From sequence record OZ336095.1: a DNA stretch of 64,000 nt; one strand, 5' to 3'. The position numbers and the translations under genes were made by a program. The DNA is from a phage. The notes beneath the pieces were generated by a model. That model made no database searches, was not told the origin of the DNA, and saw only the letters and a list, made by a program, of their open reading frames with translations. Positions 59,357 to 59,498 of the stretch are shown piece after piece (positions within the stretch are counted from its first letter, which is position 1; each line of letters opens with the position of its first letter).

Positions 59357-59498
59357 ATTATCTTTGTAGATAAGTTATTAAGCTTACCTGTGAGTATGCG
59401 ACCACAAAGGGTGAAAGGGTAAATTCTAGATTTAAACCCAACAAGGCACATCGCTACAGACCTTAAGCAAGTCTGGGTAGCTTATCTACAAAGATAAT
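59357..59498. repeat. Perfect 18-bp inverted repeat enclosing about 106 nt
   Basis: attatctttgtagataag at 59357..59374 and its exact reverse complement cttatctacaaagataat at 59481..59498. Confidence 0.85.

Follow-up and report, generated by a model that had tools for sequence, protein, structure and literature searches.

In a Felix O1-like phage, a perfect inverted repeat within the tRNA cluster forms the terminal helix of what is very probably a functional structured RNA, here called module 3, which comes last after four Y-like RNA cassettes, the fourth adjoining it without a spacer. The cassette array itself lies 0.3-1.1 kb downstream of a gene for a Ro60-like protein. The explanation that we favour, that module 3 is an excised, non-tRNA-like Y-type RNA of a Ro60-like particle, has in our estimation about an even chance of being right as a whole. 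Coordinates refer to the window, meaning the whole 64,000-nt stretch of sequence record OZ336095.1 that was analysed, which is from a Felixounavirus (Felix O1-like phage).

The repeat was first remarked on in a sequence-only reading of this DNA as a perfect 18-bp pair within the tRNA cluster, and that description is exact: the left arm attatctttgtagataag (59357-59374) and 59481-59498 are perfect reverse complements of each other. With one extra outer base the perfect repeat is in fact 19 bp (59356-59374 / 59481-59499), and when G-U pairs are admitted it grows inwards to 24 bp (59356-59379 / 59476-59499). The accompanying claim that such a repeat is improbable by chance is borne out, with 30 first-order Markov simulations yielding 0 repeats of at least 18 nt and a mean of 0.17 of at least 14 nt, and with this one being the sole perfect inverted repeat of at least 14 nt with a spacer of at most 300 nt in the 64-kb window. 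No second copy of the arm is present anywhere in the window. The surroundings are a 429-nt tRNA-free gap from tRNA-Asp (58997-59074) to tRNA-Lys-UUU (59504-59579) in a cluster where ARAGORN finds 26 tRNA genes (58411-63556 of the window), every one on the plus strand.

Among the natures suggested for the repeat in the sequence-only reading, a long-stem structured RNA is the one upheld by fold z-scores of -5.2 to -5.8, by compensatory changes over 8-13 homologues and by the favouring of the plus strand. RNA structure prediction, proposed there as a check, has the terminal helix, P1, closing a multi-branched fold (z = -5.8). The parts are as follows.

59356..59499, plus strand: the whole structured RNA, module 3, about 144 nt (RNAfold -48.3 kcal/mol, z = -5.8)
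59356..59379, plus strand: 5' strand of P1, holding the left arm as first reported (19 perfect pairs and 5 more, 3 being G-U)
59389..59406, plus strand: predicted hairpin P2a, UGUG-AGUAUGCGAC-CACA (by-eye comparison with the homologue L008)
59417..59439, plus strand: predicted hairpin P3, GGGUAAAUUCUAGAUUUAAACCC (minimum free energy fold)
59457..59475, plus strand: hairpin P4, CAGAC-CUUAAGCAA-GUCUG, with a 9-nt loop (in all homologues, with differing stems)
59476..59499, plus strand: 3' strand of P1, holding the right arm (10 of the 16 helix-1 pairs changed on both sides)
59500..59579, plus strand: the 4-nt linker UAAU and tRNA-Lys(UUU) (ARAGORN)

The 24-bp P1 is a covarying terminal helix made from the 5' and 3' ends and closes a 96-nt interior whose fold is predicted to be multi-branched; P4 lies directly 5' of the P1 3' strand, and module 3 stops 4 nt short of tRNA-Lys(UUU). 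For the gap as a whole the fold z-score is -5.2 versus shuffles. The inner extension of P1 is backed by changes in L008 (A-U to G-C and U-G to C-G), where P2a also recurs as GGGG-AGUAUGCGGC-CCCU, by eye a compensatory stem with a conserved loop. The P2a segment is swapped out in bumzen/Moogle-type phages. Felixounavirus has two unrelated versions of the interior's 5' half, as seen on comparing 59380-59416 with L003 2743-2790 in near-identical Felixounavirus genomes, with the base of P1, P3 and P4 retained and the P3 core UUCUAGAUU common to both interior types. The window type is also found in L008 and the bumzen type also in Mooglevirus, which suggests modular exchange of the interior 5' half by recombination.

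A total of 252 phage records match the gap, and in 180 the match spans 80% of it or more. Almost all of the 252 belong to Felixounavirus or Mooglevirus (Ounavirinae), with Escherichia, Salmonella, Shigella and Citrobacter as hosts, and nearly all have the match at one place per record, while 5,426 complete E. coli genomes have no match to the element. The number of matching records, the one place in nearly every one, the lack of an E. coli match and the single copy in the window mean that the element is neither a repeat family nor an assembly artefact, the latter having been raised at the outset as a sequence unique to this assembly. A search at other loci and in related genomes, likewise suggested then, has been rewarded in its second part, with homologues at the same site in 13 phage lineages, but not in its first, there being no dispersed copies.

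The homologues compared were from Felixounavirus (bumzen type), Mooglevirus (Mordin, Moogle and Sf19), Yersinia phage P778 and nine metagenomic relatives, their flanking protein being 53-89% identical to that of the window; over the thirteen Felix O1-like homologues the flanking proteins are 53-98% identical. Because MAFFT on all 14 module-3 homologues misplaces the register of P1, an 8-sequence alignment (A3) together with per-sequence folds was used. Each of 13 homologues has a 145-170-nt element ending 0-10 nt 5' of tRNA-Lys-UUU, with fold z-scores of -3.7 to -7.5 and an interior of 93-139 nt. P1 is 22-27 bp in all 13 (22-25 bp in 10/13), though in L093, L096 and L009 it is split into 12-13 bp, an internal loop and a further stem, making 27 bp in total in L093. 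Its sequences are unrelated across lineages (AAUUAUCUUUGUAGAUAAG, AGUUUUAUUUGAAGUG, AUUUCUUUGGGGUUUACC and AAACAAUUUGCA). In A3, 86% of cells are paired versus 31-44% when the partners are slid, and 18 of the 26 pairs are changed on both sides, i.e. are compensatory, a score matched by 0 of 500 shuffles. P4 in the same comparison has all its cells paired (100%) and 5 of its 6 pairs compensatory; its 9-nt loop is conserved as CUUAAGCAA, CUUUAGCAA or CCUAUGCAA, the GCAAG within it being invariant in A3.

The two strands do not fare alike. The covariance model R1 gives 135 bits on the plus strand versus 29 bits on the minus strand, and the minimum free energy is lower on the plus strand in 9 of the 13 homologues; on such comparisons of sequence and fold the plus strand is the functional one. 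When R1 was run against 75 distant Ro60-like loci there was no convincing module-3 homologue outside the Felix O1-like clade, a match in L090 being rejected as a false positive (E-values of the covariance models are rough).

Known families offered no ready home. An Rfam scan of 59075-59510 at E up to 10 gave no match within 59356-59503, one of 58000-64000 at E up to 1 gave tRNA matches and noise only, ARAGORN has no tRNA gene in module 3, and no terminator-like site is present on the plus strand in 59075-59503. An intrinsic terminator was considered and set aside, as P1 is rich in A+U and what comes after it is UAAU and a tRNA.

What lies upstream is the reason for considering a Ro60-like particle.

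56829..58244, plus strand: Ro60-like protein gene, 471 aa, with Pfam DUF2828 and DUF7788, a HEAT-repeat ring and a vWA domain (Pfam/PHROG, AF2, Foldseek)
58264..58384, plus strand: two sigma-70-like promoter matches, at sites 58264 and 58355 (consensus matches only)
58577..58655, plus strand: Y-like cassette 1 (36.3 bits with model R2)
58744..58809, plus strand: Y-like cassette 2 (46.5 bits with R2)
59133..59212, plus strand: Y-like cassette 3, with the same closing helix and UACAGCAA motif and a small variable domain
59220..59357, plus strand: cassette 4, a YrlA-type circularly permuted tRNA mimic (128.8 bits with R2)

The gene at 56829-58244, directly upstream of the tRNA cluster and ending 1.1 kb before module 3 (58244 versus 59356), has a product that matches PHROG 850 'RNA-binding protein'. 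A single-sequence structure model of the 471-aa ORF had a pLDDT of 45 and an alignment-based AlphaFold model one of 88.6. In a Foldseek search of the PDB the best 12 matches were all to Ro60/TROVE proteins and ran over the full length of the model (E 3e-8 to 1e-6, TM up to 0.66), with Xenopus and human Ro60, D. radiodurans Rsr and the Ro60 of Thermus phage phiLo among them; the sequence search of the PDB gave a marginal Ro60 match only, in the vWA domain (E 0.68). The family is present in 710 phage records, including mycobacteriophage genes annotated 'Ro-like RNA binding protein'. Matched by position and description alone, the protein is probably the counterpart of gp130 of phage Bas63, which we take to be a Felixounavirus as well. 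In the PhageMaP preprint (2024) this Ro60-like gp130 is directly upstream of the phage tRNA genes, counters ppl defence and, when expressed alone, rescues T7 on ppl defence, from which it follows that the anti-ppl activity, at least, needs no phage RNAs; Y RNAs are there conjectured only ('some tRNA genes are possibly Y RNAs'). In the window the two promoter-like sites fall between the Ro60-like gene and the first tRNA, and there is no terminator-like site between them and 59737, a layout in which co-transcription from these putative promoters would be expected.

The four cassettes, copies of one unit, lie in the interval between the Ro60-like gene and the repeat. Each has a 4-bp lower stem, with covariation among the four (UGAC/GUCA, UUGC/GCAA, GGGC/GCUC and UUAC/GUAA), then an asymmetric 5'-AGA / 3'-G loop, which is conserved, next the upper stem, AGACC.../...GGUCU here and of other sequence in distant lineages, and the motif U(A/U)(A/C)CAGCAA (UACAGCAA) followed by a variable domain. 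By eye the AGA/G loop is off the consensus for a K-turn, which was rejected. In cassette 4 the lower stem, AGA/G internal loop, upper stem and UUACAGCAA are followed by tRNA-like arms, so ordered that they make the variable domain an entire tRNA-like fold in circularly permuted form: V hairpin, T arm (GAAGG-UUCGAUU-CCUUC), closed 7-bp acceptor-like hairpin (ACUCGGC-AGAU-GUCGAGU) and D arm (GUGU-AAUGGUA-GCAC). Across nine cassette-4 homologues, aligned as A7, paired cells come to 98.5% and compensatory changes affect 16 of the 30 pairs. The model built from these nine, R2, has 100 matches, all on the plus strand; in at least 20 distant IMG/VR contigs full-length ones (40-80 bits) adjoin a gene for a Ro60-like protein of 38-47% identity, and the top matches do not overlap ARAGORN tRNAs and have the 5' motif and closing loop in common.

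The order T arm, acceptor-like stem, D arm is what defines YrlA (Chen 2014). Cassette 4 has it, inside a stem of the protein-binding type, and its 5' strand GCAGAAG...UUAC resembles the YrlA GNCGAAG...YUAY. In this module 3 (59356-59499) is unlike YrlA, for it carries none of these arms; a second YrlA-type mimic was rejected for it on a score of about 1 bit with R2 (59358-59503, filters off) and the lack of any T-loop or D-loop sequence.

Database annotation of the region calls for comment. Some GenBank records have a 'tRNA-Thr-GGT' of 129-131 nt at about 59174-59302 of the window (L001 1600-1728; L002 1601-1731), a miscall that derives from the V hairpin (UUUCU-CCGGUAA-AGAAA) and T arm of cassette 4. 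As an intron-bearing tRNA-Thr it fails, since the acceptor pairing that tRNAscan proposes is poor and what passes for an 'anticodon arm' is the cassette V hairpin; a group I intron or permuted intron-exon arrangement for split tRNA halves fails also, the halves being one closed, conserved YrlA-type fold. Other GenBank records put 'hypothetical protein' CDSs across the RNA region.

Several further RNAs in or near such arrays came to light. Just 5' of cassette 3, at 59081-59134, are two conserved hairpins, GAGAGGGC..GCCCCUC and CCCUUAAAGGG..CCUUUAAAGGGG, both with compensatory changes in relatives. Phage P778 (L007) has at 9011-9148 and 9233-9390 tRNA-like RNAs of normal topology, with an open acceptor stem and D and T arms, in which a long stem carrying a 60-100-nt insert takes the place of the anticodon arm, a circular permutation opposite to that of the window's YrlA-like RNA. 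At distant Ro60-like loci (L088 968-1545, L037 6370-6563 and L036 10985-11180, the last with a predicted tmRNA nearby) there are RNAs with terminal stems of about 14-28 bp. L088 has three of them one after another upstream of its Ro60-like gene, in an array with tRNA mimics; they have 20-25-bp closing stems and each a T arm or T-arm-like sequence, and from this row we take long terminal stems to be normal for the Ro60-like system.

Is module 3 then a partner of the Ro60-like protein? We would put that at close to even, or a shade under. According to Chen 2014, Y RNAs have a terminal stem made from their 5' and 3' ends and are encoded no more than 4 kb from Ro60 and in the same orientation. That distance and orientation hold for module 3, and the paper on phage phiLo describes its Ro60 as binding two phage-encoded Y-like RNAs. 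Because the homologues detected with R1 all belong to Felix O1-like phages, the co-occurrence of module 3 and Ro60-like genes is phylogenetically non-independent. The P4 loop UUAAGCAA is similar to the cassette motif U(A/U)(A/C)CAGCAA; the similarity is short, and T[AT][AC]AGCAA has 16 occurrences on the window's plus strand, of which 6 lie in the cluster. P1 has no conserved GNCGAAN0-1G / CGAA, and by eye there are near-matches in the interior of some lineages only, the nearest (GCCGAAG in Sf19 and CACGAAG in L010) not being conserved; the neighbouring cassettes carry GCAGAAG and the AGA/G loop. A literature search found no expression or binding data, and none on Felix O1-like transcriptomes or small RNAs, nor are the RNAs described here mentioned in the paper on the Felix O1 genome.

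We infer the transcription, processing, Ro60-like binding and function of module 3 along the following lines. It would be transcribed on the plus strand together with the first tRNA sub-cluster, the 3' strand of P1 being effectively the 5' leader of tRNA-Lys(UUU), such that an RNase P cut at 59503/59504 would free its 3' end. P1, at 22-27 bp, would be a plausible RNase III substrate for excision, its length being in the range of the 20-22 bp or more of near-uninterrupted duplex that serves for that enzyme. The product would be a further, non-tRNA-like Y RNA of this phage, comparable to YrlB, which the Ro60-like protein may bind via the terminal stem and/or the conserved P4 loop, and which may act as scaffold or gate for the Ro60-like ribonucleoprotein during infection.

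Irrespective of any Ro60-like particle, P1 could be a processing element and nothing else, the RNA that it closes being a by-product. This alternative envisages P1 and a paralogous hairpin further along the cluster as RNase III-type stems that cut the precursor and aid tRNA maturation.

60554..60643, plus strand: paralogous long hairpin with 26-nt arms and a 38-nt loop containing UUACAGC, directly 5' of tRNA-Leu(UAG)

The arms of this hairpin are 85% complementary and its stem sequence is related to P1; in its L008 copy the stem core, TCTTTGTAGAT, is identical to the P1 core of the window. E. coli RNase III requires a duplex of about two helical turns, the size that P1 has consistently, and P1 abuts tRNA-Lys with its 3' strand in every lineage. 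A 13-bp inverted repeat at 60287-60400, AAGUCUUAUUAGG / CCUAAUAAGAUUU, moreover surrounds tRNA-Ser(UGA) and lengthens its acceptor stem. However, a spacer hairpin would not require about 100 nt of conserved multi-branch structure, and the interior is constrained, in length (93-139 nt) as well as in its near-invariant P4 loop, covarying P4 stem, P3 and other motifs. Processing and a function in trans could, moreover, go together. We consider processing alone unlikely.

Elsewhere in the cluster the motif AAGAUUUAA(U) is repeated just 5' of several tRNAs (59490, 60635 and 62196). At about 60206-60285 lies a tRNA-like sequence with a T arm, whose acceptor stem is 7 bp long and whose 'anticodon' loop, CCUCCAAAA, has 9 nt; it has no ARAGORN call and a weak Rfam tRNA-Sec match (22 bits). 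Sub-threshold Rfam matches to tmRNA_permuted (29 bits) and tmRNA (15 bits) cover 59679-59984, with a degenerate T arm at 59878-59897, in a 247-nt gap and downstream of a strong promoter-like site at 59753-59781.

A function in trans need not involve the Ro60-like protein, and a second alternative, to which we accord the same low standing as to processing, is that module 3 titrates a host RNA-binding factor or nuclease, as a decoy or sponge would, or regulates host RNA metabolism. A nuclease acting on tRNA-Lys-UUU is one possible target, and on this view the linkage to tRNA-Lys would do no more than borrow its processing. The coupling to tRNA-Lys(UUU) is invariable; the P4 stem CAGA/UCUG is by eye that of the anticodon stem of the adjacent phage tRNA-Lys; module 3 is without clear Y-RNA motifs; and two exchangeable interior 5' halves are to be expected of a module under diversifying selection. 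Yet in P778 the P4 stem and the tRNA-Lys anticodon stem do not covary, for which reason mimicry of that tRNA-Lys arm by P4 was rejected as a general feature. There is also no similarity to an Rfam family, and membership of a shared system is the simpler account of a place in a Y-like array beside a Ro60-like gene.

A bolder version of the Ro60-like reading is that module 3 represents an undescribed class of phage non-coding RNA, restricted to Felix O1-like phages, which tRNA-processing enzymes, perhaps along with RNase III, would excise and which would be loaded on the Ro60-like anti-defence protein with the four tRNA-mimic or Y-like RNAs, its 5' interior setting the target; the combination we hold to be doubtful, on a par with the two alternatives just given.

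An element acting at the DNA level (a MITE or transposon remnant, a protein-binding palindrome, a cruciform or a replication signal) is very improbable. A perfect 19-bp palindromic pair does resemble terminal inverted repeats or operator-like sites, and both a miniature inverted-repeat element and a protein recognition site had been put forward in the sequence-only reading. The first is contradicted by there being one copy to a genome, at a constant syntenic position, and none in 5,426 complete E. coli genomes, and by arms which are not conserved as sequence, differing wholly between lineages and yet pairing, co-varying so as to preserve it and with G-U pairs that are valid only on the plus strand. 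The structured interior too is conserved. A recognition site in DNA gains no support from the asymmetry of the strands; that a protein is bound to the RNA, rather than to DNA, is plausible.

Slimmer still is the chance of a small protein being encoded here, as the mechanical ORFs of 85 aa (59194-59451, minus strand) and 58 aa (59158-59334, plus strand), and the 'hypothetical protein' annotations in some GenBank records, e.g. wV8 gp48 and UAB_Phi87, stand against the absence of any ORF conserved in position, length or start codon over 10 lineages (P778 has none of at least 45 aa) and against substitutions that compensate RNA pairing. The original statement about the enclosed segment thus keeps its 'no tRNA features' and loses its 'no ORF', ORFs overlapping it but none being conserved.

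Ro60-Y RNA particles are conserved from bacteria to humans, and their roles in phages have barely been explored. Candidate RNAs, the four Y-like cassettes and the long-stem module 3, now have names, coordinates and structures; many unrelated phage contigs have an RNA of the tRNA-mimic type alongside a DUF2828-type Ro60-like gene; and the intron-bearing 'tRNA-Thr-GGT' and 'hypothetical protein' calls over the region are corrected. Were the bolder version of the Ro60-like reading true, this RNA would be the specificity module of a phage counter-defence ribonucleoprotein, and its exchangeable 5' interior domain would decide which host RNA or nuclease the particle engages.

How does module 3 sit beside known systems? 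The RNase III stems that flank rRNA operons and those of T7 early mRNA are, like P1, duplexes of at least 20 bp that flank a structured RNA in a polycistronic transcript, but module 3 is a small RNA that carries its own conserved motifs. Species 1 and 2 of T4 (rnaC/rnaD) are small stable non-tRNA RNAs from the T4 tRNA cluster, co-transcribed and processed with the phage tRNAs; T4 is not known to have a Ro60-like gene. From YrlB of Salmonella, Yrn2 of D. radiodurans and Yrl1/Yrl2 of phiLo, module 3 differs in having no recognisable GNCGAAN0-1G/CGAA or bulged Ro-binding helix, in a P1 that is a near-perfect 22-27-bp duplex, in being embedded in a tRNA cluster and fused to a tRNA-Lys leader, and in having as its candidate partner a DUF2828-type protein, not one annotated as TROVE. 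What it has in common with them is a size of about 100-150 nt, a terminal stem closing an internal multi-loop, and a place on the same strand within a few kb of a Ro60 homologue and beside a YrlA-type mimic.
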